Made by a program: the position numbers and the translations under genes
Assembly: GCA_964487375.1 (NCBI GenBank)
Contig: CAZAQA010000007.1
Coordinates: forward strand, 46,168 to 110,167
Length of the DNA: 64,000 nt
Direction of reading: 5' to 3'
From: an uncultured Anaerolineae bacterium
Lineage (GTDB): Bacteria; Chloroflexota; Anaerolineae; JAADDB01
Part shown: positions 9,366-61,327 of the stretch, piece after piece
Position numbering within the stretch: the first letter of the stretch is position 1
Layout of the letters: the number at the start of each line of letters is the position of its first letter
The notes under the pieces: model-generated
What the model was told of the DNA's origin: nothing
The model's input: only the letters and a program-made list of their open reading frames with translations
The model's database searches: none

Positions 9366-9400
9366 TGTTACTTTATTATACCATGCTATGTCAACAACGC
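9366..9400 (-). promoter_or_regulatory. Candidate promoter for minE, with an extended -10 element
   Basis: On the minus strand: TTGACA, then TGGTATAAT (extended -10), about 50 nt upstream of the minE ATG. The -35/-10 spacing is suboptimal. Confidence 0.3.
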
Positions 9401-9784
9401 CAAACTGCCGGAATGCTCCAAAAGAACTCGTCCACACGAAAGCACCCTACAACGCACTTGCAGGTTCAGAAATGAACCTGATGATCCCTGCAGTTGAAAG
9501 GCTGTAGACCTCGCTTGTCAGAGGCTCCTGTGGGGGCCGGTGAACGCACCGGCCGTACCATGCGATGTCGTTGTGCGAGGTACGGGTGCTTTCTGCTCGA
9601 GAACGGTGCCTTATTTTCCAAAATTGTGTATAATACGCGCGAGTGAGGAATGCTTCCCGGTTCCGTAAGTAGACGGACAAGGAGATCGTGAATCTGGGTA
9701 GCAAGCGATCTCGCTTGAAAAACAGCACATATGAGGATCTTGCAGACCAAATTCATAATCAAATTTCCGATTAGGAGGAGGCCC

Positions 9785-29212: not shown

Positions 29213-29241
29213 TTGAACGTTGCGGGCAAAATTTGGATAAT
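29213..29241 (+). promoter_or_regulatory. Candidate sigma70 promoter for the giant secreted-protein gene
   Basis: TTGAAC (29213-29218), a 17-nt spacer, then GATAAT (29236-29241). Overlaps an imperfect direct repeat GCGGGGGCAAATTTGAAC / GCGGGCAAAATTTGGAT. Confidence 0.35.
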
Positions 29242-29311
29242 GCCTGAACATAGGCCAGCCATGCTGCATTGTTCAGTTGTACAAAAACCCTGCGCTCAGG
29301 GGAGGAATGTA

Positions 29312-32300
29312 ATGTCTAGAAGGATACCATGGTGGGGCTTCGCGGGGATCCTGTTGATTGTCGCCTTTCTGTTGGTCTCGTTCTCTCAGATGCCCGTTAA
29401 TGCCGATCTCACAGCTACAGGGTGGAAATTGTCCTACACAGGCCAAAATAACTGGCTGAAGGACGTTCAATTTGTGAGCTCAACCATCGGTTATGCTGTT
29501 GGTGAGTCAAAAATCCCTCTTTGGTTTGGACAAGGGGCCAGGTATCGCGGCTCTATCCTGCGCACATTTGATGGCGGCGAGACGTGGGAAGAGATGTACA
29601 CCCAGGATAGCGCCAAGTTCGAATTGCGGGCCATGCGGGGTCTGCATATGATCTCCCCTCAGGAAGGGTGGGCGGTGGGCGACTTGGGCCGCATCTTGCA
29701 TACTCGTGATGGCTGGCAAACATGGGAGGTGCAATCCTCCGGACATAGCAAGCCTCAATTTGATGTCTTTGTCTCTCCTGACGGACGGTTGGGCTGGATT
29801 GGCACCAGTCCGAACGCCGGTCACTTGTTGCGGACGACCAACGGTGGACAAACGTGGATATCAGGTATGGGCAACCCGGCTCCTTGGGGAGCATCTACCG
29901 AAAGTATGGACTGGTTGTTTGTGAACGGCGTTTGGTACGGCTATGCTATTGGTTCTGTGAGCACGGGAGGCCTTTTCGTCCGCTCTGTCGACGGAGGGCG
30001 TTCCTGGATTCGCACTACTCCCGCCTTGGCCGACGTCCACGTTCATCAAGTGGACTTCGTAGATCCTGACCATGGGTGGGTTGCAGCCAACGACGGCCGG
30101 ATCTATAGGACAGAAGACGGCGGAGAGACCTGGCAATATTCCCAGATGGACAAGAATGTGCACGTGATGGATGTTCAGTTCCTCGATCGTTTTCATGGCT
30201 ATGCGGTCGGCGCGCGGTGTCCCTATCCTCCCAACTATTGGTTCCAATGTACAGATTCACCAGACGGAACGGGGCGGCGGATCTCTGCCCAGGTGGTCTT
30301 TTTGACAACCGATGACGGTGGGCGGAGCTGGAAGAGTCAGACGCTACCGGGGGACAGCGTGCCAGTGGCGCTCGATGTTCTGGACCCGAATCACATATGG
30401 ATTGTCGGTGAGCGCGGCATGGTGCTTCGTTACACAAGTGATGCGCCTCTTCCGACGCCGACGGCTTCAGCCGTCACACCGGTTACGCCGACCCTCACAC
30501 CGACTGCAACGGCTACCCCCACGCCAACTCCCAGTGCGACCCCTACCGGCCTTGTTGGCTCGGGAACCCTGGTGCTGCAGGAAGGAGTCAACGGGTACAA
30601 CGGCGTGCAGGACACGTATATCGAACGCTGGTGGCCGTATGGGTATAAAAATTTTGGCAAGGACCCCATCATCGCCATTCGCGGTGAGGATAAGCATGGG
30701 GTCACCCTGGAAGGCCTTTTGCGCTTCGACCTTCACCTTTTGCCTCGGTATGCCATTATACAGCGAGCGGAATTGCGCCTGTATTCCGGTGCGGCGAACA
30801 GGGAATCTCCTGAATTGTTCCGCGCTTATATGTTACGCCGCCCCTGGGACGAGACCATCGCCACGTTTTACACGGCCTCCCGCCGGGAAAGCTGGGAAAC
30901 CCCCGGCGCACTGGGCTCAAGTGACCGGGATCCCTCCCCTGTGGGGGAATCTATCGTCGATAGACCTTACACCTGGCTTAGTATTGATGTCACCTCTGCT
31001 GTCGGCAAGTGGGTACGAGGGGAAGTCCCCAATGATGGCTTGGTGGTGCAGGCTTTCGCCATCCCCGGTCATCCGGCTGTTCATCATAATTTCATTAGCA
31101 GTGAGGATCGGCATGTGAACCTGAGGCCACAACTCGTCATCAAGTATTCGATCGCTACCCCCACGCCGACACCTTCACCGACGCCGACGGCCACCTTTAC
31201 TCCCACGCCGACGCCGACTTCGACTCCCCGGACAACGCCAACGCCGGTGTATTCTAAGCCTCTCACTTTGCATTTGCAGGAAGGGCGGGATGGATATCAA
31301 GGAGTGAAGGATACGTACATCAGCCGTTGGTTCAGGAAAGTGAACTACGGTTTGGACCCGGTTTTGGCCCTACGCACAGAGGACGCCATCGGGCCCACCC
31401 ATGAAGTACTTCTTTATTTCCCCTTACCAAAGGCCATCCCACCTCGGGCCGAGATCCTCAAAGCCACATTGAAATTGTATTCGGGGGCGCGTAATCGGAA
31501 TGCCGCCATCTTGTTACGGGCGTATTTACTCTTGCGGTCTTGGAAAGACACGGATGCAACATGGTATGACGCCATGGCCGGAACCCCCTGGGAAAAACCG
31601 GGGGCGTTCGGTACCAGTGACCGCGTGTCTCAGGCCGTTGGAGAGGTTGTTTTCGACAAGACTCACGCTTGGGTCAATATGGATGTGACAGCAGCGGTTG
31701 CCCGTTGGGTGCGCGATCCGAACAGCAACCGGGGCTTGCTCTTGCAAGGGTTCAAATTGGGCACTCAGGTAGAGCATCGGTTTTTGAGCAGTCAGTATCC
31801 TAACATCGAACTTCGTCCCTTGCTGGAAATCACCTATCGTGTTCCTGTGGAGCCGACAGCGACGCCGACGCCTACACGTACGCCCACAGCAACGCCATTT
31901 CCGAGCGATACTCCCACACCGACGCCGACTCCCACCTTCGATCCTCTGATCTCGCCGTTGCCGACGCCAACCCCGACGTTGACATCAACCCCGACCTGGA
32001 CGCCGACGCCTTCCCCGACCTTCACGCCCACGTCAACCTCCACGCCAACTGTGGTTTACTATACTGCACCTATCACCAAGAAGCTGCAACTGGGGGTTGA
32101 TGGATATACGGGCATGAGAGACACGTACATCAGTCGCTGGTACAGAAATCGAAATTTCGGTCGCGAACCTGTCTTGGGGGTGCGTACAGAGGACACTTTC
32201 GGGGTCACTCACGAAGCACTCCTGTATTTCCCCCTCGCTGACGTTTTGCCGTCCCATGCCCGTGTATTGAGCGCTCGGCTCAAGCTGTATTCGGGTGCTC

Positions 32301-34408
32301 GCAACCGCCGTGCTCCCATTATTCTGAGAGCCTACATGTTGCGGCGTGCCTGGGATGAGGAAACGGCTACCTGGGTTCGGGCTGACACAACGTCTTCCTG
32401 GGCAACGGCAGGGGCCCAAGGGGACGGGGATCGCTATCTGACCCCCATCGGGGAAACTACCTTCAATCGAGTGTACACCTGGGTCTCCATTGACGTTACC
32501 GAGGCGGTGCAGCGCTGGCTGGAAGGAAAGGATGCAAACGACGGCCTTATCATCCAGGGTTTCAAAGTAGCCGGCGGTTCTCAGGTACAGCACAACTTCC
32601 TGAGCAGCGAGTACCCTGACCCGCGGTTGCGCCCGATCCTGGAGATCACATATCAGGAACAGACGACGACACCTCCCACAATGACCCCTACGCCAACGCC
32701 AACCGTGCAGTCGACGGCGACCTGGACTCCACGCCCAAGCCCGACGCGCGGAATCCGTCCGACACCTCTTCCGCCTGCGCCGACGGCCACCCCTCTTCCC
32801 ACTCGTCCTATTCGTCCAGGTGTGGACGGCTGGGAAGCGGTGCGCCATCCAGGCGTCTACATGGCCTACGATTATTCTGGACACAATCCGCAAGTTTACG
32901 GTACGGTGGGCTCCCTGGCTTCTTTCCATTGGTCAGCGCTGGAGAAGCAAAAGGACCGGTATGATTTTAGCGATATTGATCGGTGGTTAACTCGGCTGGC
33001 CAGTGATGGCCTGAAAGGCGCTTTCTTTGTTGATCTCTTCGACGGCGGTTGCTATGGAGATCGCTCTTTGCCTCAGTATCTTATCAATGACCCTCAAGCC
33101 GTCCTCCGGCGCAATCTGGGCTACGTTTGTCCACAGTCGGGACGAACGTGGAAGGCCATTCCCAACTACATGAGTCCTGTCTTGCAGGAACGGTATCGGC
33201 TCCTTATTTACAAACTGGGCGCACATTACAAGAATGATCCCCGAGTAGAATTTATTGCAGTAGGCACGGGGATTTATGGAGAAACACGAGCGGCAGCGGA
33301 AACAGCTGACCTGAATGCCTTGAAAGCGGCCGGTCTCACCAGCGACCTGTGGGTCGATTTTGTCAAGAAGGTTGGAGCCTGGTACCGCGACGCGTTTTCT
33401 GATGCCCAGGGCCATTTGCTCAAGCCCGTTCTCCAACAATCAGCGCCGGTGACGTTCTCGCCTCGTGAGCGCCGCGAAATCAATCAGCACGCGTTGCAAT
33501 TGGGTATGGGCATTTCCCTGAACTTGATGTATCCAGACGGTGAGGGGGTGCTCTTCAAGAACAATCCTGCCTGTCCGTACTGCTCTTGGTATGATTTCCC
33601 TATGCTCTATTGGGACATCATGCCGACGGCATGGGAGGCCTATAAACAGCAGACATGCACGCCTGAACAAATCTGGTGGGGGGTATACAATATTCTCAAT
33701 AAACATCCCGTGTACCTGCGAGTGGCATGGCCTCTCATCCGCACCAACAACGGAACCCCACGATGGGAGAATCTGGCTCCTTTCAAGTGGGCGGCGCCTT
33801 TCCTGGGCGTGAAAGCAGCGAACGCCCCTGCCGCCTGGGTGGCTTTGCGTGAACATCGCGACCCCTGGCGGCCGTTGACCTGCATGGGCATCGATGCTCC
33901 GGCTCAACATCAGAATCCGCAATGGGGAAACTACGGCTTTTTCATGGACCAGCGCGACGACTTGCCGGGAGGACGGACTGTACCGGAGACAAACGACCCG
34001 AAGGTAACACGTATGGCCAGCAATACACATCCGTACAATCCTGCCCTTCCACCAGGGAAGGAAGCTTGGACGGTCCGTCGGACGGACGAGCGTACAGGGA
34101 ATCGTTACATGTTCTTCGATGTTACCCGAGATTACTTGAGCGGTGTTCATTCAGCGACAGTGAAAGTCACGTACTGGGATCACGGAACGGACACCTGGAG
34201 CCTGTACTATCGGGACGCACAAGGCCGGGTTGTCCGGGCAGGCCTTGTGCGCAAGACGAATAGTGGCCGCTGGAAGACGGCTGTTTTCCAACTGGCTCGC
34301 GCACGTTGGGATAATTCTCTCCCTGAAGGCACAGGCGGGGCAGACTTCTATCTGGACAGCAATAACGACGGAGATGAGTGGATTCACTTCGTAGAGGTGC
34401 TGAAGTGA
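29312..34408 (+). CDS. Giant secreted multidomain protein: BNR/Asp-box beta-propeller, 3 x DNRLRE/CBM96-like domains, and a glycoside-hydrolase-like TIM-barrel domain, joined by Thr/Pro linkers
   Basis: Start at the ATG after GGAGGAA. Signal peptide. Asp-box repeats (TNGGQTW, VDGGRSW, EDGGETW, DDGGRSW). Three ~200-aa repeats with a DTYISRW...LRAYMLRR.WDE..ATW pattern. PTPTPT linkers. C-terminal W..LEK..DRYDF..ID GH42-like region. Confidence 0.7.
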   Translation: MSRRIPWWGFAGILLIVAFLLVSFSQMPVNADLTATGWKLSYTGQNNWLKDVQFVSSTIGYAVGESKIPLWFGQGARYRGSILRTFDGGETWEEMYTQDSAKFELRAMRGLHMISPQEGWAVGDLGRILHTRDGWQTWEVQSSGHSKPQFDVFVSPDGRLGWIGTSPNAGHLLRTTNGGQTWISGMGNPAPWGASTESMDWLFVNGVWYGYAIGSVSTGGLFVRSVDGGRSWIRTTPALADVHVHQVDFVDPDHGWVAANDGRIYRTEDGGETWQYSQMDKNVHVMDVQFLDRFHGYAVGARCPYPPNYWFQCTDSPDGTGRRISAQVVFLTTDDGGRSWKSQTLPGDSVPVALDVLDPNHIWIVGERGMVLRYTSDAPLPTPTASAVTPVTPTLTPTATATPTPTPSATPTGLVGSGTLVLQEGVNGYNGVQDTYIERWWPYGYKNFGKDPIIAIRGEDKHGVTLEGLLRFDLHLLPRYAIIQRAELRLYSGAANRESPELFRAYMLRRPWDETIATFYTASRRESWETPGALGSSDRDPSPVGESIVDRPYTWLSIDVTSAVGKWVRGEVPNDGLVVQAFAIPGHPAVHHNFISSEDRHVNLRPQLVIKYSIATPTPTPSPTPTATFTPTPTPTSTPRTTPTPVYSKPLTLHLQEGRDGYQGVKDTYISRWFRKVNYGLDPVLALRTEDAIGPTHEVLLYFPLPKAIPPRAEILKATLKLYSGARNRNAAILLRAYLLLRSWKDTDATWYDAMAGTPWEKPGAFGTSDRVSQAVGEVVFDKTHAWVNMDVTAAVARWVRDPNSNRGLLLQGFKLGTQVEHRFLSSQYPNIELRPLLEITYRVPVEPTATPTPTRTPTATPFPSDTPTPTPTPTFDPLISPLPTPTPTLTSTPTWTPTPSPTFTPTSTSTPTVVYYTAPITKKLQLGVDGYTGMRDTYISRWYRNRNFGREPVLGVRTEDTFGVTHEALLYFPLADVLPSHARVLSARLKLYSGARNRRAPIILRAYMLRRAWDEETATWVRADTTSSWATAGAQGDGDRYLTPIGETTFNRVYTWVSIDVTEAVQRWLEGKDANDGLIIQGFKVAGGSQVQHNFLSSEYPDPRLRPILEITYQEQTTTPPTMTPTPTPTVQSTATWTPRPSPTRGIRPTPLPPAPTATPLPTRPIRPGVDGWEAVRHPGVYMAYDYSGHNPQVYGTVGSLASFHWSALEKQKDRYDFSDIDRWLTRLASDGLKGAFFVDLFDGGCYGDRSLPQYLINDPQAVLRRNLGYVCPQSGRTWKAIPNYMSPVLQERYRLLIYKLGAHYKNDPRVEFIAVGTGIYGETRAAAETADLNALKAAGLTSDLWVDFVKKVGAWYRDAFSDAQGHLLKPVLQQSAPVTFSPRERREINQHALQLGMGISLNLMYPDGEGVLFKNNPACPYCSWYDFPMLYWDIMPTAWEAYKQQTCTPEQIWWGVYNILNKHPVYLRVAWPLIRTNNGTPRWENLAPFKWAAPFLGVKAANAPAAWVALREHRDPWRPLTCMGIDAPAQHQNPQWGNYGFFMDQRDDLPGGRTVPETNDPKVTRMASNTHPYNPALPPGKEAWTVRRTDERTGNRYMFFDVTRDYLSGVHSATVKVTYWDHGTDTWSLYYRDAQGRVVRAGLVRKTNSGRWKTAVFQLARARWDNSLPEGTGGADFYLDSNNDGDEWIHFVEVLK

Positions 34409-48779: not shown

Positions 48780-51700
48780 TTAAACGGTTAAGTTGCAACG
48801 GTGTGCGAGATTTGTTTGCATTGCCGCGATATGTAAGAAGGTGTGTCGGAGAGCTTCATCTGTGAGATGCTCGGCAACATGGTGGATGATTTGGTGGGCA
48901 GTGACTAACTGTGCTTGGGCTTCTTGATGACGCCCTGCATTGACGTACAACGTGGCTAGTTGGGCGCGTCCTTGCCACCGAAGAGGTTGATAGTGAATTC
49001 CATCTGCCAATTGCACTGCGGCTTCCAATTCGTTGATGGCGTTGACCGTGCGCTTTAACCGAGATAGCGCTGAAGCGCTTAGTGAGCGATACTGGGCCAA
49101 GTACTTGCTTGCCGTAGCCGATTTCGCCAGCGCCAATCCCTCTTCCACTAGCGGAAACACAGCGGCTGGTTGGTTGAGGGCCAGATGACATGATGCTCGG
49201 GCGTGAAGGATGCGCAAGCGCCAGCGCCACGCGTGGAAACCAAAGCTGCCCGCTTTAATTCTGGCCTCGATGCCATCCAGCATTTCCATGGCCTGGCGCG
49301 GTTCTCCCATGTACAGCACATCAAGGCAGACATTGAGCCGGGCGCTCACTTCCGGTGGACCTTTGCCCCACTCTTGGGCCAGGGCAACCCCTTCTTGGTC
49401 CAGGTGCAGGGCCTGTTCAAAGGCCCCTAACTCACGATGAAGCCAGCCCAGCATATTGGGAATTTGGGCGATGAGGTATCCGTCGCCAACGGTCTCCGCC
49501 TCCACCTGGCTACGCTGGAATGCTCTCATCGCTTCTTGGTATTCACCATATCCGCCGTAAGCACGCCCCAGCAGGTTCCACGAGTAGGCCATGGACATTT
49601 TGTCTTCGAGCTCGGTCAGAGGTTGTAGTGCCCGCTTTATAGTAGTGATGGCCTGGGCAAACTCACCACGCTGGGTGTGGAGGAAGCCTGTTTCATTGAG
49701 GACGCAGGCTGCCAAGTGAACATCACTCAACTCGTCACTGAGGGTTTGCGCTCGGGTGATAGTGTCCAGGGCCTGATTTAGCAGTCCCTGGCCTTCGTAG
49801 ATCTCGGTGAGTAGTAACAGGTTTTGGGCGACTAACGCGTTGTCACCTGCCTGTTCGGCCGCGGATAATGCAGCGTAGACGTAGCCGGTGGTCACTTTGT
49901 GCTGTCGGTTGGCAAGCTGGGCTCGCGTGAACAGAAAGCGCGCTCGCCGAACGTTATCTTCGTGCATTTCCGCCAGGTGGATTCCTTGTTTTAGCGCTGC
50001 TGTCGCTCGAGCCGCGTGGTCTAGAAGCATAAAGGCCCGACTCAACCCTTCGTAGGCGTCCATCTCTTGCGCCGCCCCTTCGGCTAGGACTAAGGCTCGT
50101 TCATAGTGTTGTACAGCCTCTTGCAAAGCATAAGTGCGGAGGGCTTTTTCGCCTGCCAACAGCCAATAGACTCGAGCCCGGTTGGTGTCCCGAGCCCGTT
50201 CGAAATGGTAGGCCAAAAGTGCTGGCCGCTCTTTGGTCGATTGTTCCAAGGTTTTTGCAATTTGGCCATGATACATGACCCGACGCGTCTCGCTAAGGTC
50301 GTTGTAGACGACTTCGCGGATTTTGGAGTGACCAAAGTCGTAGCCTTCATCTATCTCTTGCCACAATTCTCGTTGCAGCAGGCTCTCCACGATCTCCAAT
50401 AGATCCAACGGATTCTGGCCAGTGATGGCTTGCAGGGTGGAGAAATCGAAATTCTGGCCAAACACAGCCATCCAACCCAATACCTGTCGCTCCAACGGCG
50501 CCACTTGCTGTAAGCGTCCTCGCACCGATGCTTGAATAGCTTCTGGCAAGGTGATATGAAGGGGTAAGTTCATGGCCGGCGCGGTTTCCTCTAGTTTTCC
50601 CTGTTCTTGCAATGCCTGAAGAATGGACACGAGGAAAAAGGGATTGCCGCTTGTTTCGTCATGAAGCCATTCACACCAGGTAAGAGGTACGACTTCTTGG
50701 GCTACCAGCAGTTCTTTGATATCAGCACTTGAAAGGCGGTCCAGAGTGATAAAAGTTGTGTGCGGCTCGCACTGGAGATGATGAACTAGCGCGGCCAAGT
50801 GCACATTTGCGGCCGCTTCCTCCTGGCGATAGGTGCAAACCAGCAATATCCTTTCAGCGGCGGCGCGTCGAGCCAGGTGGTGGAGAAATTGGAGTGTTGC
50901 CGTATCGGCCCAATGAATATCGTCGACATTGAGCATGAGACCATGTCCTCTAGCCATGGTTGACAACAGGTACACGATGGCCTGGAAAAGGCGTCCCTGC
51001 TGGCTTTTGGTCTGGATGGCGGAGGCGGTGGTCTGGTTTGTAGCAGCGATCTCCGGCGCCAAGGTCACGATTTCTCTCAACCAGGCTGCGGGCAACTCGG
51101 CAATTTTCTCCGGCCACACTGCGTTGATGTGCTGCACTAAATCAATGATGGGTTGGTAGGGGATGGTTTGCTCTACTTGGTAACTCCGGGCGAAGAGGAT
51201 GGTGAGGCCGCTGTTGCCGGCGAACACCGCTGCTTCCCGCATCAAGCGGCTTTTGCCAATGCCTGGCTCACCGCTTAGAAAGACCACGCCACCATGACCC
51301 TGGTTAACCAGGGCAGTTATCTGACTGTATTCGCGCGCTCGGCCCACAAATGGGGTTGGCCTGAGCAGATGGACACTAGCAGGTATCTGCTCAGGGCGTG
51401 GGTAGAGCTTGTCTCTGTCAACACTTGCTACCTGATGACGTTGAATTTGGTGAAAGAGTTCAGTCGTCTGTTGCGCCGGTTTGACGCCTATCTTTTCCCA
51501 CATCACTCGACGCACCTGGTTGTAGAGCTCCAGAGCCTCGGGCTGTTCACCAGTGCAGTAGAGGTACAGCATCAGTTGGCGATAGGTGGACTCGCGGGTG
51601 CTTTCGACTCCAAGACTTTGTCGACACAATCCGATCGCGTGGCGGTATTGCCCCCGACGTGCGTAGCCCTGCGCGAGGTCGGCCAACAAATTCAGGTACT

Positions 51701-52193
51701 GTTCCCGTAGCTGCTCGCGTGGGCCCAGCGCCCACTCTGCATAAGGATCATCCTCCATAAAGTCGCCTTGGTAAAGCTGCCGCGCCTTGTCCAGGGCGTC
51801 AATACGAAGGGCCAAGTCGGCTGTTTTTTGCGCCATATCAAGATAGTGGCTAAAGGCGTCAGCGTCGATCCAATAATCGCTGTTGGGATCGAACAGATAA
51901 CCTTCATCACACTTGACGATGTAATCGGAGGGAGCACGTGGCGGCAAGTCGGGCTGTAGCACGCGTCGTGCCTGTCCCACCGTCACCCAGAGATTATTGC
52001 GGGCCCTTTTGGGCACGAGATTAGGCCAGAGATACTCAATGAGCCGATCCGTCGAAACAAGATGTCCTCGTTTTGTGAGGAGAATTTTGAAGAGTTGCCT
52101 GCTTTTTGACGTCGGCCAGACGTTAGAAGAGATCGTTTCTCCGCCGCGCCACATGTGAAAGGGCCCCAGTGTTTGAATGCGGATATTCGGCAT
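48780..52193 (-). CDS. AfsR/SARP-family large regulator: OmpR-type wHTH, BTAD, STAND/NB-ARC-like ATPase, TPR repeats
   Basis: Trimmed to the ATG giving MPNIRIQTLGPF.... SARP DNA-binding and BTAD region. P-loop GEPGIGKSRL. Long C-terminal TPR-like array. Confidence 0.7.
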   Translation of the reverse strand: MPNIRIQTLGPFHMWRGGETISSNVWPTSKSRQLFKILLTKRGHLVSTDRLIEYLWPNLVPKRARNNLWVTVGQARRVLQPDLPPRAPSDYIVKCDEGYLFDPNSDYWIDADAFSHYLDMAQKTADLALRIDALDKARQLYQGDFMEDDPYAEWALGPREQLREQYLNLLADLAQGYARRGQYRHAIGLCRQSLGVESTRESTYRQLMLYLYCTGEQPEALELYNQVRRVMWEKIGVKPAQQTTELFHQIQRHQVASVDRDKLYPRPEQIPASVHLLRPTPFVGRAREYSQITALVNQGHGGVVFLSGEPGIGKSRLMREAAVFAGNSGLTILFARSYQVEQTIPYQPIIDLVQHINAVWPEKIAELPAAWLREIVTLAPEIAATNQTTASAIQTKSQQGRLFQAIVYLLSTMARGHGLMLNVDDIHWADTATLQFLHHLARRAAAERILLVCTYRQEEAAANVHLAALVHHLQCEPHTTFITLDRLSSADIKELLVAQEVVPLTWCEWLHDETSGNPFFLVSILQALQEQGKLEETAPAMNLPLHITLPEAIQASVRGRLQQVAPLERQVLGWMAVFGQNFDFSTLQAITGQNPLDLLEIVESLLQRELWQEIDEGYDFGHSKIREVVYNDLSETRRVMYHGQIAKTLEQSTKERPALLAYHFERARDTNRARVYWLLAGEKALRTYALQEAVQHYERALVLAEGAAQEMDAYEGLSRAFMLLDHAARATAALKQGIHLAEMHEDNVRRARFLFTRAQLANRQHKVTTGYVYAALSAAEQAGDNALVAQNLLLLTEIYEGQGLLNQALDTITRAQTLSDELSDVHLAACVLNETGFLHTQRGEFAQAITTIKRALQPLTELEDKMSMAYSWNLLGRAYGGYGEYQEAMRAFQRSQVEAETVGDGYLIAQIPNMLGWLHRELGAFEQALHLDQEGVALAQEWGKGPPEVSARLNVCLDVLYMGEPRQAMEMLDGIEARIKAGSFGFHAWRWRLRILHARASCHLALNQPAAVFPLVEEGLALAKSATASKYLAQYRSLSASALSRLKRTVNAINELEAAVQLADGIHYQPLRWQGRAQLATLYVNAGRHQEAQAQLVTAHQIIHHVAEHLTDEALRHTFLHIAAMQTNLAHRCNLTV

Positions 52194-52789
52194 AATCCTT
52201 TCTCTTTGATGTCCGTATTGCTCACATAGTCGCATGGAATGAACTCGCCGTTGGGCCGTGGGACGCTCGAAAGCACCTTGCATCAATGCACAGGTACAAG
52301 GGAACGCATGCAGGACTTGATACTGAGAAAATACGCCAAATATGCGCGAGGATGTGTTGGGATGTGGGGCCTTACATCGAGAGGATCGGTATCCTGGCGC
52401 GTCCCAATGTGGAAACAGTATAGCTTCTGTGCAGGGAAAGGGCAAATCCCTGTAGTTCGATCTGGTTTTCCGTCAATCGCCCTTCTCACCTGCGGGCTGA
52501 GCCTAGCAAGTGGCCATAGCTTCAAAACCGTACAAAATGCTTCCAGCTATCCTGGCTGCCAATTCCTTTTGATTTGTGCCTATTCTTTTTCCCTGTTTCC
52601 TTCATGGCCTTGTTTTCCATGGATTGGAAACGCGAACTCACACGCTCACGCTTCCCTCTCACACCTGTACACAGGAACCGTTCTGGAGGCATGAGGAATG
52701 AGAGGCTACGTGACCAGCGGTCGACGAAAATGATAATTCGAAGAGAAGGACCACTGAGCGGCCTCGTGGACGGGTTACTACAAGGGAGT

Positions 52790-52999: not shown

Positions 53000-54523
53000 T
53001 CACACGTCGTAAAGCATGTCCAGGTATCGCCGGAGCAGGTCGTCCACCATGCCGCGGAATGGAATGGAAGCTGCCATTCCGTACACGGGTGCCATCCCGC
53101 CCTTTTCTCCCGGATGCTCACGCACGTACTCAACAGATTCCCGCAAGTCAAAGAGGAAACGCTCGGTGACGCCGGGTTGCGCGTGCCGGAGCGTCAGGGC
53201 GAGGTGTAGCGCCGGGGGCGATTGCAGTCCGTTCAGGCTCCATCCCCGCCTCGCCATGGCATCCAGCACCCGGTAGATATCGACTTCGTCGGACGTGAAG
53301 GCGATAATCCAGAGGGGCTTCCCCAGAATGCGCAGGCCAGGAATCTCCTCAATGCCGCGCTTGACCCGCTCCGCGGCTTCCAGGATCAGTCGGGTGGCTT
53401 GCAGGTACCCCTTCGCACCCATTTTCACCATGACCGCCCAGCAGACGGCGATGAGTCCGCCGGGACGGCTCCCGGCTATGGAAGGCGAGGCATATAGCCC
53501 GCCCGGCCAGTCGGTGGCGGTGAAATACTGGTACCGGCGCAGTTCCGGCGTTCTGTAAAGTACCACCGACGTCCCTTTGGCCGCGTAACCGTACTTGTGG
53601 GTGTCTACGGACATGGAAGTCACGCCAGGGAGCCGAAAATCGAAGACCGGCACGGGGTAGCCCAGCTTTTCCGCCCAGGGCAGGACGAACCCGCCAAGGC
53701 AGGCATCCGTGTGGAACCCAATGCCTCGTTCGTGGGCCAGTTCTGACATCTCCGGGATCGGGTCGATGACGCCGTGGGGATATCCTGGCGCCGAGCCTAC
53801 CAGAGCGATGGTGTTGTGCGTGATCGCCTTCTCCATGGCCTCCACGTCCGCTCGGAAATCGGGGCCCACCGGTGTCCGGACCGCCTTGATGCCGAAGTAC
53901 TGAGCGGCTTTGTCGAATGCCGGGTGAGCCGTTACCGGCAGCACGATCTCCGGTTTGGTGACCCTTCTCTCCGCCCGGGCCCAATCCCGATAGGCTTTCA
54001 TGGCCATGAGGATGCTCTCCGTGCCGCCGGAGGTCACTGCACCGCACACGCGGGCTTTCGGGTCTATGCGTTGCGCTTCACGGGCATTGAGCATGTTCGC
54101 TGTCATGGAGACGATCTCGGCTTCGTACTTAACGGTGCTGGGCCAGAGGTCGGCGTGGAGGGGATTACTCTGGGAGTTCAGGGCGTAGACCCGGTTGATG
54201 AACTCCACGTGTTCCGGGCCGCCGTGGTAGACCGCCCCGGACGCGTATCCATCCCGCCAGCGCTTCTCTTCTGGCTCGTCGAGGCGCTGCATCAGAGCCA
54301 GTATCTCGTCGGTGCCCATTCCTTCCTGAGGAAGTTCCACGAACTCCGGAGTCTTGCCCCGGTACGGCTTCAGGTCTTCTTCCAAGTCTTTCAGAAGCGC
54401 GTCGTATTCCTTCTCCAGCCGATCTCTCACGCCGGGAAGTTTCCTCATGCCTTTTTCCAACGTACGCGCCACCGGGCGGGGCAGTCGTCCCCCCAAGGCG
54501 TTCAGCAATTTCGTCACGTCCAT
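53000..54523 (-). CDS. PLP-dependent group II decarboxylase-fold enzyme, sphingosine-1-phosphate lyase-like
   Basis: 507 aa. PLP-lysine region [20 protein letters not shown] matches the SPL signature. TSGGTESIL. Confidence 0.75.
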
Positions 54524-54696
54524 CTTTCCCTCCTAATCGGGCCTTCGATTTGCTTCGAAAGCTCAAAATCGCTTCAGGGGACATTCCCGACGTTTCTGAA
54601 GCGATCCGCTACTTGCCCGTTGGGGTTGACGTAGACCGATACGGTTTTGGGGATTCCTGGGGACCCAGAAGGTCGCCAGGAATTGCTTCGCCCTCC

Positions 54697-56292
54697 TCAA
54701 TCCCCGAACCGGTTTATCTTGCGGTACAGAGCCTGGTTTCGCTTGTAGATCTCGACGAAAGCATTGAAGAGGTCGTCGTAGACGGTTTTGGTGCCCGGAT
54801 CGGGGGAGAATGTTTGCTCAATCTCCACATATTTGGAATAGCTTTCCAGTGTAGTCAGATTCAGCGCTAACCCGGCCAGCACTCCCAACCCTCGCAATCC
54901 CGCGGCCTGAGGGTCCTTGACCTGTCGGATGGGACGCTGGAGGACGTCGGCGAATATCTGGCACCACACATCGGATCGGCCGCCTCCGCCGATGATGTTG
55001 ATGGGCCCGAAACGACGCTTGACAAATTTCTCCACGTACATCAGGAGCCAACGAGTATTCAGCGCCACTCCCTCGAAGACTGCTCGTACCAGGTCCGCGC
55101 GGGAAATACCCAGGGACAGGTTGTAGAATCCGCCCCGTAAGGTCGGATCGTCTACAGGCGTCCTCTCGCCATAGAGCCAGGGTGTAAAAATGACGCCGCC
55201 GCTGCCGGGAGACGCTTTGGCGGCCATTTCGTCCAAGCGCCGGTAGGCGTTCGCCGGGGCGCGACCAGTGCCCAGAATGTCATCGCCGTAGAACACCTTG
55301 TCTCGGAGGAAGGTGAGGGCGACCCCAGAGGTTTCCTGTTCGTTCGCCACGAAGTACCTTCCCGGGATGGACGACGGCATGGAGGCCATGTTATGGAACA
55401 GGTCGGTCTTCTTGTACGGCACATGGCAGGTGAGCCACGAGGACGTGCCGACATAAATGTGCGGCTCGAAGTCCTTTACCGCCCCGGAACCGAGAACAGG
55501 AGCCTGCACGTCCGGAGCTCCCATGGACACGGGCAGACCTGTCGGCAGATCCATTGCTTCGGCCGCCTCTGGCCGCAGTTCCCCGAGGATGCGGGTCGTA
55601 GGGTAAAGGTCGGGCAGCTTCTCTCGCTCGATTCCTGCCATTCTGAGCAGACGTGGGTGGTAGCGGATATCGTTGATGTCGCGGTTGTCCGTGAGCCAGT
55701 GCAGACCAACGGTAGCATAGTCGGAGGCCATCTTGCCCGTCAGGAGGAAGTTCAGGTAGTCCTTCGGCTCCAGGAACTTGTACGCCTGTCGGTACACCTC
55801 CGGGCGTTTGTTCTTGATGAAGAGAATGTGGGCGATAGAGTCCTTGCCGGAGTGGGTCGGAATGCCACCCGTAAGTCGTATCCACGTCCAGATTTTGTCC
55901 AGCCCGTACCCTTCCACCTTGATCAGGCCGCCGGTGATCTCCTTCACGTAGGGCGCCCCGCGGGTGTCCATCCAGATGATGGCGTTCCCCAATGGCTTCC
56001 CGTCCCGGTCCACGGCCACGGTTCCGGACCAGTGGACGCTGACGGAGAGGGCGACCACCTGCTCTCGTGGTGTTTTGGTTTCGTGGAGCAGTCGCCGTGT
56101 GGTGGATGTGACTACCTTCCACCAGTCCGCCGTGTCCTGCTCCGCGCCCCCTCCGGGGATAAAGTAGGTGGGCGTGGCGTCGGATTCCTCCGTGTACGCC
56201 ACGATCTTGCCGTTTGGAGTCACGAGGCCGACTTTACAGGCGGTGGTACCAAGATCGACAGCCAACACAAGGGGTTTATTCTGTACGGACAT
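54697..56292 (-). CDS. FGGY family carbohydrate/polyol kinase
   Basis: Start at the ATG after GGAAGGAG. FGGY N-terminal (AVDLGTT) and C-terminal domains. Confidence 0.75.
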   Translation of the reverse strand: MSVQNKPLVLAVDLGTTACKVGLVTPNGKIVAYTEESDATPTYFIPGGGAEQDTADWWKVVTSTTRRLLHETKTPREQVVALSVSVHWSGTVAVDRDGKPLGNAIIWMDTRGAPYVKEITGGLIKVEGYGLDKIWTWIRLTGGIPTHSGKDSIAHILFIKNKRPEVYRQAYKFLEPKDYLNFLLTGKMASDYATVGLHWLTDNRDINDIRYHPRLLRMAGIEREKLPDLYPTTRILGELRPEAAEAMDLPTGLPVSMGAPDVQAPVLGSGAVKDFEPHIYVGTSSWLTCHVPYKKTDLFHNMASMPSSIPGRYFVANEQETSGVALTFLRDKVFYGDDILGTGRAPANAYRRLDEMAAKASPGSGGVIFTPWLYGERTPVDDPTLRGGFYNLSLGISRADLVRAVFEGVALNTRWLLMYVEKFVKRRFGPINIIGGGGRSDVWCQIFADVLQRPIRQVKDPQAAGLRGLGVLAGLALNLTTLESYSKYVEIEQTFSPDPGTKTVYDDLFNAFVEIYKRNQALYRKINRFGD

Positions 56293-56628
56293 CTCATCTT
56301 CTCCTTCCACCTGTGAGGGCATGGCTCATCCACGTCCTTGCCGCCGTGGTCATCTTGGCTGGCGAGGCCTCTGGGTGGCAAGCGGTTCCTGGAGATTATA
56401 ACGTTCCAGTGCGAGGAAACGCAACCCACCGGATCGCGTCCCAAGAGACCCGACTGACCCGGTCTCCGACATGGGACCCTCGGCCTTGAACCCCGCCAAA
56501 TGGCCTATGTGCTGCCCCGTCAAATAGCCCTTGTTTTCCCCGCGAGTCATGCTACATTGGATAGAAAGGGCCGATGTACGCCCGACCGCAGATGATGGTC
56601 AACAATTCTCCACAACTGAGGTGAACAA

Positions 56629-57132
56629 ATGGCAAAATCGTACAAGAAGAAGCGACGTCGGAGCTCCTCTCACCGACGGGAGCGGAGATCGTCGCCCCTG
56701 TGGGCCTGGCTGCTTCTCGTGGGAGGCTCATTGGCAACCATTGTGCTGATCGTGTTGGCTGTGCGTTACGCCAGTGGCGCTACGGGTGGAACGTACTATC
56801 CACCGACAGACACCGCAGGTCACGCGGAAACGTCTCCGCCCTCTCACATCCTCGAGCGTCCGCTGCCTCTGGCCACGTTCAAACACATGCTGGAACATGC
56901 GGACGGGAGCGGGCCGCCTGGGGTTATCATCAGCTATAACTGCGATGACTACGACTGCCAGCCGGACTTCGTCGACCGTTTGCGGGCCATTGCCGAGGAC
57001 TACCCCGACTTCGTCTACCTGGCTCCATTCCCCGGCATGACCGCGAAGCTCGCGGTCACGAGGCGGGGAAAACAAGTAATCCTGGACGAGTTCGACGAGC
57101 AGCGGATTCGGAACTTTATCGAGGGGGGATAG
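56629..57132 (+). CDS. DUF3105-like membrane-anchored protein
   Basis: 167 aa. Basic N-terminus plus one TM helix, and a C-terminal soluble domain. Family assignment is from recall only. Confidence 0.4.
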   Translation: MAKSYKKKRRRSSSHRRERRSSPLWAWLLLVGGSLATIVLIVLAVRYASGATGGTYYPPTDTAGHAETSPPSHILERPLPLATFKHMLEHADGSGPPGVIISYNCDDYDCQPDFVDRLRAIAEDYPDFVYLAPFPGMTAKLAVTRRGKQVILDEFDEQRIRNFIEGG

Positions 57133-57185
57133 TAGCACCACCCCGAGGTGTTTACAAAAGAACAGGTTCAGGGGTCACAGGGGAG

Positions 57186-57899
57186 ATGACTACAACAGGA
57201 GCACGCGTGGTGACAGCATTGGACAGTATCAGCCATTGGGTGGCGGCCCACTGGCTGGCCCTGGTCAACACAGCTTGGGGCATACTCGTGACGGTACCCT
57301 GGCTGGCCCCTGTGGCCATGCACAGCGGGTGGACGCGATTGGCCAACGCCATTTACTTCACGTACAGCTTCTTGTGCCACCAGTACGCCAATCGCTCTTT
57401 TTTCCTCTTTGGCCCCAAGGTGATGTACGCGCACACGGAACTGCTCCCCTACGCAGCCAATATCGGCACCTGGTGGGGCTTACGCGCGTTTCGGGGTGCG
57501 CCTGGGCTAGGGTACAAGGTCGCCTGGTCCGACCGCATGGTCTGGATGTATGGGAGCATTTTTGCAGCAGGACTTTTGTTCGCGTTGGTGCGCAGGAAGG
57601 TGCGTCCCCTTCCCTGGCTCGCCTTCGTTCTGCTCCTTGCTCCCCTGGCCCTGGATGGGGGCACCCACTTCATCAGCGACCTGTTTGGCGTGGGACAGGG
57701 ATTTCGATACACCAACGGGTGGCTGGCCGTTCTGACAGGGAACGCGTTGCCCGCGTATTTTTATGTCGGCAACGCCCCGGGATCCTTCAACTTTCTGATG
57801 CGATTCATTACCGGTGTCATCTCCGGTCTGGCCATCGTGTGGTTTGTGTATCCCCGCTTGCAACGAGCTCTTGGTTTGGCAGGACAAAGTGCAAGGTGA
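57186..57899 (+). CDS. DUF2085 family integral membrane protein
   Basis: 237 aa polytopic membrane protein with the CHQ motif region (FLCHQYANRSF). Confidence 0.5.
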   Translation: MTTTGARVVTALDSISHWVAAHWLALVNTAWGILVTVPWLAPVAMHSGWTRLANAIYFTYSFLCHQYANRSFFLFGPKVMYAHTELLPYAANIGTWWGLRAFRGAPGLGYKVAWSDRMVWMYGSIFAAGLLFALVRRKVRPLPWLAFVLLLAPLALDGGTHFISDLFGVGQGFRYTNGWLAVLTGNALPAYFYVGNAPGSFNFLMRFITGVISGLAIVWFVYPRLQRALGLAGQSAR

Positions 57900-58197
57900 G
57901 CCAGAGGTCGCTTGTAACAGCCGCAGGTCTCCTCTATACTCCGAAAGGGCATTGCAGGAACGCGCGCAGCATGGCCTCATCTGCTCACTACAGAAAAGAC
58001 GTGTGCTATGATTCTCTTTCGGGTTGGTCGGTGTGGGAACCTGCAAAGTAGGATACGTATAGGCCATTCGGCGGGGGAAAGGCCGCGCTGAATGGCGGTT
58101 GTAGCAAAGGGGTGAAGGTGTCATAATAAAACCAGAAAAGTGCGTTTTGTTTTGTGCCCATCGCGAGGGGCTTCAAGCTGGAGGAAGGAACAGATCT

Positions 58198-58641
58198 ATG
58201 AAGAGACGTCATCTGGTCATGCTTATCAGCACACTAGTTTTGATCGGTACGGTGACCGCGTGCGCGGGCGGGAGTGAACGGAAGCCCCCGACGGCTCGGG
58301 ATTCCCAGAAGAACGCGGACGGTTATGTGGACATTTCTGTGGACCGGCTGGCCCAAATGTTGGAGGACAAAAACGTTGTGCTCGTCAACGTTCACATCCC
58401 TTACGAGGGAGAGATTCCTGGCACCGATCTCTTCATCCCGTTCAACGCCATTGCAGACAATCTGGACAAGTTGCCTGATAAGAACGCACGGATCGTGCTT
58501 TACTGCCGCAGTGGCTCAATGAGCACGGTTGCAGCCAGGACCCTGGCTTCGCTGGGGTACACGAATGTCTATGAACTAGACGGCGGCTTCAATGCCTGGA
58601 AGGCCAGTGGCCGACCTCTTGTCGGGCAACAATCACAGTAA
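58198..58641 (+). CDS. Rhodanese-domain lipoprotein (sulfurtransferase-like)
   Basis: Start at the ATG after GGAGGAAGGA. Lipobox (VTACAGG). Active-site loop CRSGSMS. Confidence 0.7.
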   Translation: MKRRHLVMLISTLVLIGTVTACAGGSERKPPTARDSQKNADGYVDISVDRLAQMLEDKNVVLVNVHIPYEGEIPGTDLFIPFNAIADNLDKLPDKNARIVLYCRSGSMSTVAARTLASLGYTNVYELDGGFNAWKASGRPLVGQQSQ

Positions 58642-58676
58642 GGGCGGCCCGCAGAGCGCCCTCAGGAGGAATGAAT

Positions 58677-59078
58677 ATGGAATACACACAGTACGGTATC
58701 CGGATCAAGGTCAATATGTCCTACGAACAAGCTGTCGAGAAGGTGACAGCCGCGCTTAAGCAGGAAGGCTTCGGCATCCTGACCACCATTGACGTGAAGG
58801 AAACGCTGAAAAAGAAGTTAGACGTGGACTTTCGCAAATACGTCATCCTGGGCGCGTGTAATCCGCCTTTGGCCTATCGCGCCTTAACTGCGGAGCAGGA
58901 GATCGGTTTGCTGCTCCCCTGCAATGTCATCATTTACGAAGGGGCTGGGGTCACCATCGTGGCCGCGGCTGATCCTATTCCCATGATGGGCATCGTTGGG
59001 AATGAGGCACTGAATGAAGTGGCGCGAGAAGCGCGAACACGCCTGGTGCGCGCCCTGAGTGCGGTTGAGGGACGATAG
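58677..59078 (+). CDS. DUF302 domain protein
   Basis: About 133 aa. DUF302-like pattern ([24 protein letters not shown]). Confidence 0.55.
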
Positions 59079-59128
59079 ACGAGACTCGTTCATTGTTTTA
59101 TTGTCCATCACCCGGAGAGGAGGTCACC

Positions 59129-61327
59129 ATGCACGAGAAGCACACCCATGATCCTGGACATGAGGAACATGTCCACCCCGCGGGTCACAGCCATGGATCC
59201 GTGGATCACAACGAACATACATCCCACGTTACACACGCCGAGCACAGCAAGCACGGCGACCATGAAAGCCACCAGACACACGCCGAACACGGCAGCCACG
59301 AAGGGCATGGAGAACATGGAGGGCACGAGGGGCACGAAGGGCATGAAGAGCATGGCGGTCACCACAGCCATCACGCCCATATGGTGGCCGACTTCCGCCG
59401 TCGCTTCTTCATCGCCCTGGTATTGACCATCCCTATCATACTCACGGCGCCCCTCGTTCAGCGCGTCTTTGGCTTTACCTTGTCGCTTCCGGGTGACCCC
59501 TGGACGCGCTGGGTGCTCTCCTCCATTGTCTTCTTCTACGGCGGCTGGCCATTCCTCAAAGGCTTCGTGGACGAGATGCGTCAGCGTCAACCGGGCATGA
59601 TGACGTTGATTGCGCTGGCCATCACCGTGGCTTACGTCTACTCCAGCGCGGTCGTCTTCGGCCTAAAGGGGAAAGTCTTTTTCTGGGAACTGGCCAGCCT
59701 GATCGTGGTCATGCTCTTGGGCCACTGGATCGAGATGCGTTCTATCCTGGGCGCGTCACGAGCCCTGGAAGAACTGGTCAAACTCTTGCCTGCAGAAGCT
59801 CACCTTGTGTTACCCGACGGTGCGGAGAAGGACGTGCCCGTCAGTGAGCTCAAACCCAACGACCGAGTGCGCGTCCGCCCTGGGGAGCAAATCCCCGTGG
59901 ACGGCGTGGTGGTCGAAGGCGCGTCCAACGTCAACGAAGCCATGCTCACCGGTGAGTCCAAGCCGGTGTCCAAAGGGGTGGGCGACCAGGTCATCGGTGG
60001 GGCGCTCAACGGCGAAGGGTCGCTGGTTATCGAGGTGCAGCGCACGGGCAAGGACACCTACCTGGCTCAGGTTATCGACCTGGTACGTCAGGCCCAGGAG
60101 ACCCGCTCTCGTACTCAGGACCTGGCCAACCGCGCTGCACTCTGGTTGACGATTATCGCCATCACCGTAGGAGCGGGAACGTTTGTTATCTGGCTGGCGC
60201 TGGGTAAGGATCTGGCCTTCGCGCTGGAACGGACGGTTACCGTGATGGTTATCGCCTGCCCTCACGCGCTAGGCCTGGCCGTACCCCTAGTAGTGGCCGT
60301 CTCCACGTCTCTCTCGGCGCAGAACGGCCTGCTCATTCGCGACCGCAGCGCGTTCGAACGAGGCAAGGACGTGAACGCCGTCATTTTCGACAAGACAGGC
60401 ACCCTCACGGAGGGACGCTTCGGTGTCACCGACGCCATCTCCCTCGGCGAGCGAGACGAGGACGACGTCCTGCGCCTGGCTGCATCTCTGGAGTGGGCCT
60501 CAGAACATCCCATCGCGCGCGGTATTGTGGAGAGCGCCCAGACGCGAGGCATGCGTCCCGTTCCTGTAGCAGATTTTCGTGCCCTCCCTGGCAAGGGCGT
60601 GGAGGGACACATCGACGGGCATCTCTATCGTGTGGTCAGTCCTGGCTATCTCACCGAGAACGGATTGGATGTCAAAGATGCACGTGTGGTTGAAGCCGCA
60701 GCCCAGGGCAAGACTGTGGTCTTCCTGCTGGAAGGGAACAAGGTTATCGGTGCCATCGGCCTGGCCGACATCGTCCGTCCTGAGTCCATTGAGGCGGTGA
60801 AGCGACTCAAGGATATGGGGGTGCAGGTCATGATGCTGACAGGGGATAGCAGGCAGGTAGCTGCCTGGGTGGCCCAGGAAATCGGCCTGGATGAGTTCTT
60901 TGCCGAGGTACTGCCCCACGAGAAGGCGGCGAAGGTGAAGGAAGTACAATCCCGCGGCATGATTGTGGCCATGGTGGGTGACGGTGTGAACGATGCTCCG
61001 GCACTGGTTCAGGCAGACGTGGGCATTGCCATCGGCGCAGGCACAGACGTGGCTGTGGAAGCCGCGGACATCGTGCTGGTGCGCAATGATCCACGAGACG
61101 TGGTCGCCGTGGTTCGCCTGTCCAAGGCTACCTACCGCAAGATGCAGGAGAATCTTCTCTGGGCTACGGGCTATAATGCTCTGGCCATTCCGTTGGCCGC
61201 GGGTATCTTATATCCGGTAGGGATTCTGCTTTCGCCCGCGTTTGGCGCCCTGCTCATGTCTCTCTCTACCGTCATCGTGGCCGTGAACGCCCAGCGTTTG
61301 TGGAGTTTCAAGCGCCAGGCAGTGTAA
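59129..61327 (+). CDS. copB: Heavy-metal P1B-type ATPase, CopB-like (CPH motif; His-rich N-terminus)
   Basis: Start at the ATG after GGAGAGGAGG. About 80-aa His-rich N-terminal tail. TM CPH motif (IACPHALG). DKTGT and GDGVNDAP motifs. Confidence 0.8.

Follow-up and report, generated by a model that had tools for sequence, protein, structure and literature searches.

Sphingosine-1-phosphate (S1P) lyases (SPLs) occur in eukaryotes and bacteria, and the enzyme of Symbiobacterium thermophilum (StSPL) has stood in for human S1P lyase since 2010, both as a structural model and in drug design. Cleavage of S1P by StSPL has been shown in vitro and in blood, and according to a 2011 paper of the StSPL group neither its natural function nor the origin of a phosphorylated substrate in bacteria was known (PMC3148216). 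In eukaryotes the lyase (SGPL1, Dpl1) is preceded by a sphingosine kinase of the diacylglycerol kinase (DAGK) fold (SphK1/2, Lcb4/5), while the secreted SPLs of pathogens, LpSpl of Legionella (4W8I) and BPSS2021 of Burkholderia pseudomallei (5K1R), act on S1P of the host, which carries its phosphate already. A comparable two-step logic, familiar from textbooks, is found in the deoxy-sugar modules FucK/FucA, RhaB/RhaD and AraB/AraD, in which the FGGY kinase places a phosphate on a terminal hydroxyl group and the enzyme encoded next to it then cleaves a C-C bond in a (retro-)aldol reaction. Here we analysed a stretch of 64,000 nucleotides (nt) from an uncultured Anaerolineae bacterium of the Chloroflexota (contig CAZAQA010000007.1, positions 46,168 to 110,167; hereafter the window), in which the gene of an SPL-type pyridoxal 5'-phosphate (PLP) enzyme follows the gene of an FGGY-family kinase. 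We describe the conservation of this gene pair and the pathway that it might encode.

The initial annotation of this DNA had placed the two genes on one strand, with the kinase upstream and 173 nt between them, and had suggested that they phosphorylate and then cleave an amino-polyol or a compound resembling a long-chain base. The arrangement was confirmed on the sequence, where the two co-oriented genes run on the minus strand with the kinase upstream and the PLP enzyme downstream:

54697..56292, minus strand: FGGY-family kinase gene, first gene of the pair (531 amino acids (aa); Pfam domains FGGY_N and FGGY_C)
53000..54523, minus strand: S1P-lyase-type PLP enzyme gene, second gene of the pair (507 aa)

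As to function, we see about an even chance that the pair constitutes a self-contained catabolic module that phosphorylates and then cleaves 2-amino-1,3-diols, among which long-chain sphingoid bases are the likeliest substrates.

Over 458 aa the window lyase shares 63% of its residues with StSPL, which likewise has 507 aa and the same FGGY neighbour. In Symbiobacterium, a member of the Bacillota, the order is in contrast SPL followed by FGGY with a gap of 5 nt, whereas the window, from Chloroflexota/Anaerolineae, has FGGY followed by SPL with a gap of 173 nt. The pair resembles the eukaryotic route in its proposed two steps and in the family of its lyase. The window kinase is however of an unrelated fold (FGGY, from the actin/hexokinase/Hsp70 ATPase superfamily, and not DAGK_cat), the bacterial genes form an operon, the bacterial enzymes lack the transmembrane-anchor extension, and a DAGK/YegS-type kinase is used at a single bacterial locus (L038, see below). 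The pair has in common with the FucK/FucA-type modules an operon logic of kinase and subsequent C-C cleavage, but the PLP lyase would act at the amine-bearing carbon and yield phosphoethanolamine, whereas the sugar modules employ a metal-dependent class-II aldolase and yield dihydroxyacetone phosphate. The secreted pathogen SPLs belong to the same enzyme family but to more distant clades.

The lyase was compared with solved structures by phmmer searches of the PDB. The best solved relative was StSPL (3MAD; 665 bits, E 6e-199), followed by the SPLs of B. pseudomallei (440 bits), human (SGPL1, 438 bits), yeast (Dpl1, 389 bits) and Legionella (251 bits), whereas decarboxylases scored far lower, with 88 bits for MfnA and 67-75 bits for glutamate decarboxylase (GAD)/GadB. 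The StSPL cofactor ligands G168, T169, H201, D274, H310, K311 and S353 correspond to the identical residues G167, T168, H200, D273, H309, K310 and S352 of the window enzyme, and the phosphate and head-group residues A103, Y105, N126, H129, K317 and Y482 to the likewise identical A97, Y99, N120, H123, K316 and Y481. Thus all 13 StSPL cofactor and substrate residues checked are kept, and 12 of them (all but A97) are invariant across 20 clade members with 62-83% identity. For Y482 we take the role to be the one given in the primary StSPL paper. The roles of the other StSPL residues are those of a structural review (PMC10243590). SPLs (EC 4.1.2.27, PF00282) are group II decarboxylase-like enzymes of PLP fold type I, with the PLP-lysine motif (S/A/V)DTHK. 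The lysine signature on which the initial annotation had based its choice of an SPL over a glutamate-decarboxylase-type enzyme, [17 protein letters not shown], is present in the 507-aa open reading frame (ORF), and the scores (StSPL 665 bits against 88 for MfnA and 75 for GAD) agree with that choice. A clustering of the enzyme with amino-acid decarboxylases of known function would have spoken against the proposal of the initial annotation; it groups instead with proven S1P lyases, and its active site is intact. Within the StSPL clade the window lyase is unremarkable, with a predicted retro-aldol activity on long-chain base 1-phosphates. Its N-terminus is basic and contains proline, without the extension that bears the transmembrane helix of eukaryotic SPLs. 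Its Pfam match is Pyridoxal_deC, and NCBIfam listed no SPL model, the nearest being MfnA (226 bits, cut-off 299) and GAD, both below cut-off; hence the vague names of its homologues in public annotations ("aminotransferase class V-fold", "decarboxylase family").

To follow the gene pair across bacteria, we assembled two sets of loci. The lyase-anchored set came from a scan with an SPL alignment of one genome per GTDB species (80 loci, 57-82% identity), and the kinase-anchored set from a scan with a kinase alignment of JGI metagenome contigs (80 loci, 50-65% identity). Loci with enough flanking DNA were regarded as informative, which left 74 lyase-anchored and 71 kinase-anchored loci. A tblastn search with the window kinase detected a full-length orthologue (46-78% identical) at 71 of the 74 lyase-anchored loci, at 70 of them within 1 kb and on the same strand, with a median gap of 70 nt. 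Conversely, the lyase was located within 1 kb of the kinase at 64 of the 71 kinase-anchored loci. The adjacency is therefore not due to chance, since the pairing recurs at 135 of 145 informative independent loci. Among 141 loci, the order was FGGY followed by SPL in 109 and SPL followed by FGGY in 31. The carriers span at least six phyla: Chloroflexota (Anaerolineae, Caldilineae, Ardenticatenaceae), Myxococcota (Archangium gephyra and Myxococcus spp. as isolates, Nannocystaceae, Polyangiaceae), Desulfobacterota (Desulfobacteraceae, Desulfonema, Desulfosalsimonas, Desulfobacula), Bacteroidota (Chitinophagales, Flavobacteriales), Spirochaetota (Leptospirales and others) and Bacillota. The initial annotation had named a loss of this neighbourhood in other genomes as a reason to abandon its proposal; the neighbourhood is kept in both sets, in both gene orders and in all these phyla. 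A linkage that is independent of gene order across at least six phyla argues strongly for joint action of the lyase and the kinase. They very probably act in the same pathway, where the product of the kinase would be the substrate of the lyase.

The linkage does not extend beyond the StSPL-like clade, with its identities of about 57% or more, since more distant SPLs, looked up as five matches from representatives clustered at 50% identity, showed no such pairing. Two of these (P0420, P0476) are eukaryotic, with introns and with nicastrin and prefoldin genes as neighbours, two (P0419, P0428) stand alone on short contigs and are uninformative, and the bacterial SPL P0368 (locus L176, 51% identity) has no kinase neighbour.

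The same kinase accompanies StSPL itself. In S. thermophilum IAM 14863 (AP006840.1, locus L165), the StSPL gene (BAD40259, recovered through an StSPL-seeded search and cluster look-up) is followed after 5 nt by a gene for an FGGY protein of 539 aa (about 1409232-1410851, directly after STH1274). Full-length alignment of this protein with the window kinase gives 51% identity, and the signature motifs of the subfamily are present in both. Three relatives among the Symbiobacteriaceae (L161-L163) share this order of SPL and FGGY. The neighbourhood of the S. thermophilum pair holds further genes. Downstream of it lies a gene of the "putative glycolipid-binding" family PF06475 (L165:11192-11734), which was encountered at no other locus of the set. 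Upstream and divergent (L165:1-7806) there is an operon of amino-sugar type with a sigma-54/PRD activator, a mannose-type phosphotransferase system (PTS), a SIS-domain protein and an amidohydrolase.

The kinase matches the Pfam families FGGY_N (PF00370, 5e-42) and FGGY_C (PF02782, 2e-24), and the same Pfam search gave no match to DAGK_cat (PF00781), as the initial annotation had held when it set the enzyme apart from DAGK-fold sphingosine kinases. It can therefore be a functional analogue of sphingosine kinase at most and not a member of that family. Its NCBIfam scores reach none of the curated FGGY equivalogs, as XylB scored 245 bits against a cut-off of 380 (TIGR01312) and 141 against 912 (PRK15027), GntK 214 against 649, LsrK 150 against 528 and GlpK 107 against 590, and the fuculokinase, rhamnulokinase and ribulokinase models were likewise missed. 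The structure predicted with AlphaFold2 (pLDDT 87.8, pTM 0.89) resembles glycerol, xylulose and gluconate kinases and LsrK in Foldseek comparisons (TM 0.72-0.83), with an identity of at most 26% to any solved structure. Catalytic motifs were tested as the DxGT(S/T) phosphate loop, an Asp at the position of GlpK D245 and the GGG adenosine motif. The D23-L-G-T loop, the catalytic base D271 and G445-447 (numbering of the 541-aa frame) are invariant in 26 SPL-linked orthologues. In the alignment with E. coli GlpK and XylB, D23, D271 and two glycines of the GGG motif are matched, the third being Ala in GlpK. At the substrate site, Trp-Ser, in a motif (Q/H)WSG with the consensus QWSGT, takes the place of R83-E84 in GlpK and of Met-His in the GQMHG motif of XylB. 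Arg83-Glu84 are the glycerol-binding residues in the structures of GlpK. Further signature motifs of the subfamily are TDNRD, HVPFKKTD and ANEQE, together with an insertion of about 20 residues, RLTGGxPxxSGKDSxAHIL, that is specific to the subfamily and absent from XylB. Judged by its sequence, the kinase is a bona fide FGGY enzyme outside every characterised subfamily. In public annotations its homologues are named "xylulokinase".

In the proposed pathway, the FGGY-fold kinase would transfer a phosphate group from ATP to the primary hydroxyl at C1 of a 2-amino-1,3-diol. The lyase would bind the resulting 1-phosphate through the conserved site of Y99, N120, H123, K316 and S352, the C2 amine would replace K310 to form the external aldimine, and retro-aldol cleavage of the C2-C3 bond would release an aldehyde and phosphoethanolamine. 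The same cleavage products have been described for StSPL (PMC10243590). Likely substrates would be sphingosine, sphinganine, phytosphingosine and the iso-branched bases of bacteria, taken from the environment or from the sphingolipids of the cell itself. With a long-chain base as substrate, the FGGY enzyme would be a non-homologous functional analogue of the eukaryotic DAGK-fold sphingosine kinases. In a wider sense, the FGGY subfamily might be the missing bacterial sphingoid-base kinase, which would have arisen independently of the eukaryotic enzymes and would form a compact and widespread module with the StSPL-type lyase. We rate this extension at slightly under an even chance. Free-living bacteria would use this route to mineralise sphingolipids, their own or those of the environment, to fatty aldehyde and phosphoethanolamine.

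Exceptional loci and recurrent neighbours bear on the nature of the substrate. Three lyase-anchored loci have no FGGY gene (L038, L056 and L073). At L038, in a member of the Neomarinimicrobiota, a gene for a DAGK_cat/YegS-type lipid kinase of 310 aa (7030-7962, plus strand; PF00781 2e-22; TIGR00147 93 bits, below cut-off) precedes the SPL gene (7962-9470), so closely that the stop codon of the former overlaps the start of the latter. This looks like a non-orthologous displacement of FGGY by the fold that eukaryotes use for sphingosine kinase. No second DAGK-SPL example was found among the five distant SPL matches looked up. At L056 (Caldilineaceae), a gene for a short-chain dehydrogenase/reductase (2640-3521, plus strand) begins 9 nt downstream of SPL and a PlsC-type acyltransferase gene (46-675, minus strand) is divergent, while the neighbourhood of L073 revealed nothing telling. 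Furthermore, non-orthologous genes of the amidase-signature family (PF01425) occur near the pair at five loci from Chloroflexota and Myxococcota, adjoining it at L021:9655-11382, L081:7457-9040 and L063:4728-6224 and lying within 3 kb at L061 and L099; by a rough estimate about 0.6 such loci would be expected by chance. The amidase-signature family includes fatty-acid amide hydrolase, and these genes could encode ceramidase-like N-deacylases that feed the kinase.

A universal third gene was not found when all ORFs within 3.5 kb were clustered for 139 pair loci, the commonest neighbour family being present at eight. Pyruvate:ferredoxin oxidoreductase, Ser/Thr kinase, HD-PAS, AhpC and KsgA genes were considered as module members and rejected, as they reflect lineage-specific synteny only; the amidase-signature genes and a transporter of the FLVCR family (see below) were retained as weak clues. 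The same clustering revealed no xylose isomerase or sugar-transport genes accompanying the pair and no transporter common to all 139 loci, and about 120 of 141 loci carry none, which fits a membrane-permeant lipid substrate. The transporter that recurs is a major facilitator superfamily (MFS) protein of the FLVCR family (TIGR00903), encoded directly upstream and on the same strand at about 19 soil-metagenome loci in the order MFS-SPL-FGGY (for example L104:95-1309). Distant FLVCR-like homologues (about 30% identical) are found in the order MFS-FGGY-SPL at L040:2859-4097 and L153:4691-5995. The best PDB match of the FLVCR-like protein is the choline/ethanolamine transporter FLVCR2, a weak one with E 6e-9.

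Other loci point towards sugar-phosphate chemistry. At L067:3019-8898, in a metagenome-assembled genome of the Bacteroidota, a class-III aminotransferase gene and two class-II aldolase-like genes lie between kinase and lyase on one strand. This aminotransferase resembles glutamate-1-semialdehyde aminomutase, and the insert may encode an alternative branch, in which transamination to a ketose-1-phosphate analogue would be followed by aldolase cleavage. SPL-less paralogues show a second gene context for the kinase subfamily. A second FGGY paralogue at L078:10710-15100 stands beside a RuBisCO-like protein and a class-III aminotransferase related to that of L067. SPL-less kinases at L106, L110 and L146 are encoded between a saccharopine-dehydrogenase-like gene, restricted to this one lineage, and a RuBisCO-like protein, which is thus present both there and at L078 and has an MtnW-type enolase as its best NCBIfam match, below cut-off.

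Taken as a whole, the evidence for a long-chain base as substrate leaves that assignment evenly poised in our estimate. We favour such a base because StSPL acts on S1P (PMC3148216) and the SPL active site is reached through a narrow hydrophobic tunnel (PMC10243590), because a DAGK-type lipid kinase displaces FGGY at L038, because lipid-flavoured genes adjoin the pair at L056 and in S. thermophilum and amidases recur, and because most loci are without a transporter and the polar sugar-binding residues have been lost from the kinase. Several points weigh against it. Kinase function in this FGGY subfamily is itself a prediction from genomes, the DAGK displacement was seen at one locus, and no sphingolipid genes were found elsewhere in the 64-kb window. 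The FLVCR-like transporter would suit a small cationic amino alcohol no less than a lipid, and the L067 insert and the neighbours of the SPL-less paralogues are typical of sugar-phosphate chemistry. To our knowledge, characterised FGGY kinases all use small water-soluble sugars or polyols and none acts on a lipid or an amine, and many carriers of the pair, such as Anaerolineae and Symbiobacterium, are not known as sphingolipid producers. Much of this would suit the same chemistry on a small soluble 2-amino-1,3-diol or amino-polyol (serinol, threoninol or a 2-amino-2-deoxy-alditol), imported by a transporter, with the cleavage of S1P by StSPL as a side activity. Such a substrate would accord with the polyols and ketoses that FGGY kinases are known to us to use and with a fold nearest to xylulose, gluconate and glycerol kinases and LsrK. 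It would also accord with the presence of the FLVCR-family protein in the same operon at about 21 loci and in two gene orders, with the aminotransferase and aldolases of L067, with the RuBisCO-like, saccharopine-dehydrogenase-like and aminotransferase neighbours of SPL-less kinases and with the PTS/SIS/amidohydrolase operon next to the S. thermophilum pair. Nevertheless, we consider a soluble substrate rather unlikely. The S1P lyase activity of StSPL has been demonstrated and the access tunnel of SPLs is hydrophobic and narrow, the great majority of loci have no transporter, a lipid kinase occupies the FGGY place at L038 and the polar substrate residues of GlpK and XylB have given way to Trp-Ser. 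Moreover, no soluble 2-amino-1,3-diol is known to us to be abundant in nature.

The remaining alternatives concern either the purpose of the pathway or one of the two enzymes. The pair might serve a non-catabolic role, by supplying phosphoethanolamine or aldehyde for biosynthesis or the envelope, or by keeping a homeostasis of long-chain-base phosphates like the SphK/SPL rheostat. The neighbour clustering at 139 loci indeed revealed no follow-up catabolic genes near the pair (aldehyde dehydrogenase or a phosphoethanolamine-handling enzyme), the pair is present in Myxococcota and Bacteroidota, which are sphingolipid-producing lineages, and regulators occur nearby at some loci (in the window a SARP/AAA/TPR protein, at other loci Ser/Thr kinases and HD-PAS proteins). 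These regulators are however not conserved, many carriers are not among the known sphingolipid makers, and the enzymology would be identical to that of the catabolic module, so that the difference lies in physiology and not in mechanism; we regard such a role as improbable. The PLP enzyme could instead be a decarboxylase of a phosphorylated hydroxy-amino acid made by the kinase, after the manner of PduX and the threonine-phosphate decarboxylase CobD. Its Pfam assignment to Pyridoxal_deC and its nearest NCBIfam models, MfnA and GAD, would agree with this, but the 63% identity to a proven lyase, the retention of the phosphate and substrate residues and the wide gap between the StSPL score and those of MfnA and GAD make it very improbable. 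Still less credible is the view of the kinase as a conventional sugar kinase (a xylulokinase or another) that has no functional relation to the lyase and stands next to it by chance or for co-regulation. The label "xylulokinase" on its homologues and the best NCBIfam and PDB matches to xylulose and gluconate kinases speak for this, whereas the adjacency at 135 of 145 informative loci in both orders and at least six phyla, scores far under the XylB and GntK cut-offs, the lack of xylose isomerase and sugar-transport genes alongside the pair at the 139 clustered loci and substrate-site residues that differ from XylB all speak against it. Even jointly, the decarboxylase and the unrelated xylulokinase are improbable.

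What is new here is the partner, a widely conserved FGGY kinase coupled to bacterial S1P lyase. The initial annotation had regarded the combination as outside the textbook pathways, and no description of it was found in the searchable literature, which for the most part does not include subscription journals; the same literature yielded nothing on an FGGY-SPL association, on a bacterial sphingosine kinase or on STH1273/STH1275, the genes next to StSPL, and the StSPL papers within it do not mention the kinase beside the enzyme. From the pairing we predict a new class of FGGY substrate (an amino alcohol, perhaps a lipid one). The pairing also suggests what StSPL might do in nature, a question to which a nearly constant kinase partner offers a concrete and testable answer. 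If sphingoid bases are the substrate, the kinase would be a convergent, non-homologous sphingosine kinase, sphingolipid turnover would be common among bacteria of soil, sediment and sludge (Anaerolineae, Desulfobacterota, Myxococcota), and the presence of an active S1P lyase in the sphingolipid-free thermophile Symbiobacterium would be explained. With a soluble amino-polyol as substrate, the pair would instead represent a new route of small-molecule catabolism with PLP-dependent C-C cleavage. In both cases, many named members of the two families probably carry wrong or uninformative labels ("xylulokinase" and "aminotransferase class V / decarboxylase"). For specialists in sphingolipids or FGGY kinases the pairing would be surprising, and it is directly testable.

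Two further features of the window belong to the pair itself:

54524..54696, minus strand: intergenic spacer between kinase and lyase genes (exactly 173 nt; structured)
56395..56424, minus strand: candidate promoter of the pair (TTGCGT, 18-nt spacer, TATAAT; a sequence reading)

The open frame of the kinase extends to an upstream ATG at 56322 (54697..56322, 541 aa), and a second in-frame ATG at 56292 gives the 531-aa product. The latter is most likely the true start, since GGAG stands 8 nt upstream of it and the closest homologues have 529-531 aa (homologue P0001, 90% identical to the window kinase, has 531 aa). Position 56292, which the initial annotation had given as the end coordinate of the kinase gene, is thus the probable start. 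The lyase gene has AGGAGG 6 nt before its start codon. The spacer holds a 12-bp hairpin (54571..54602) followed by UUUUG, a sequence that occurs once only in the window, and its RNA folds into three hairpins with a free energy of -66.5 kcal/mol (z = -2.8 against shuffles). Its length is not conserved, with gaps of 3-945 nt (median about 70 nt) at other loci and gaps of about 13-25 nt in close relatives, and 173 nt is unusually long for this gene pair. The hairpin may act as a partial terminator or attenuator of read-through into the lyase gene. The candidate promoter sits in the divergent intergenic region of 306 nt (56323..56628). A scan for consensus promoters and terminators detected nothing convincing on the minus strand around the pair and missed this site, whose -35 hexamer fits the consensus at three of six positions; TTGCGT-18-TATAAT is put forward as a possible promoter of the pair. 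An Rfam scan covering all 64 kb gave no riboswitch or leader near the pair.

Just downstream of the lyase gene and on the same strand (48780-52445, minus) lies an ORF for a regulator of 1221 aa with SARP/BTAD, AAA_16 and TPR domains. It has a TTG start and a long N-terminal extension without a Pfam match, and its true start is probably further downstream. This regulator did not recur among the neighbours of the pair at other loci. Divergent from the pair (56629-61327, plus strand) is a likely copper- and sulfur-handling cluster, which encodes a small membrane-anchored protein without a Pfam match, DUF2085, rhodanese-like and DUF302-like proteins and a P-type ATPase whose N-terminus is very rich in His. 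The remaining genes of the window have housekeeping or transport functions (isoamylase, glycogen phosphorylase, a CLC channel, cytochrome oxidase, ATP-binding cassette systems and the copper ATPase cluster). Its closest relatives place the window in an Anaerolineae-type genome of the Chloroflexota. The sole Rfam match at gathering threshold in the window is a 6S (SsrS) RNA at 28908-29082 on the minus strand (RF00013, 73.8 bits). Close to it, at 29213-34408 on the plus strand, a secreted-type protein of 1731 aa is encoded, with BNR/YCF48-like, CBM96 and disaggregatase-repeat domains.

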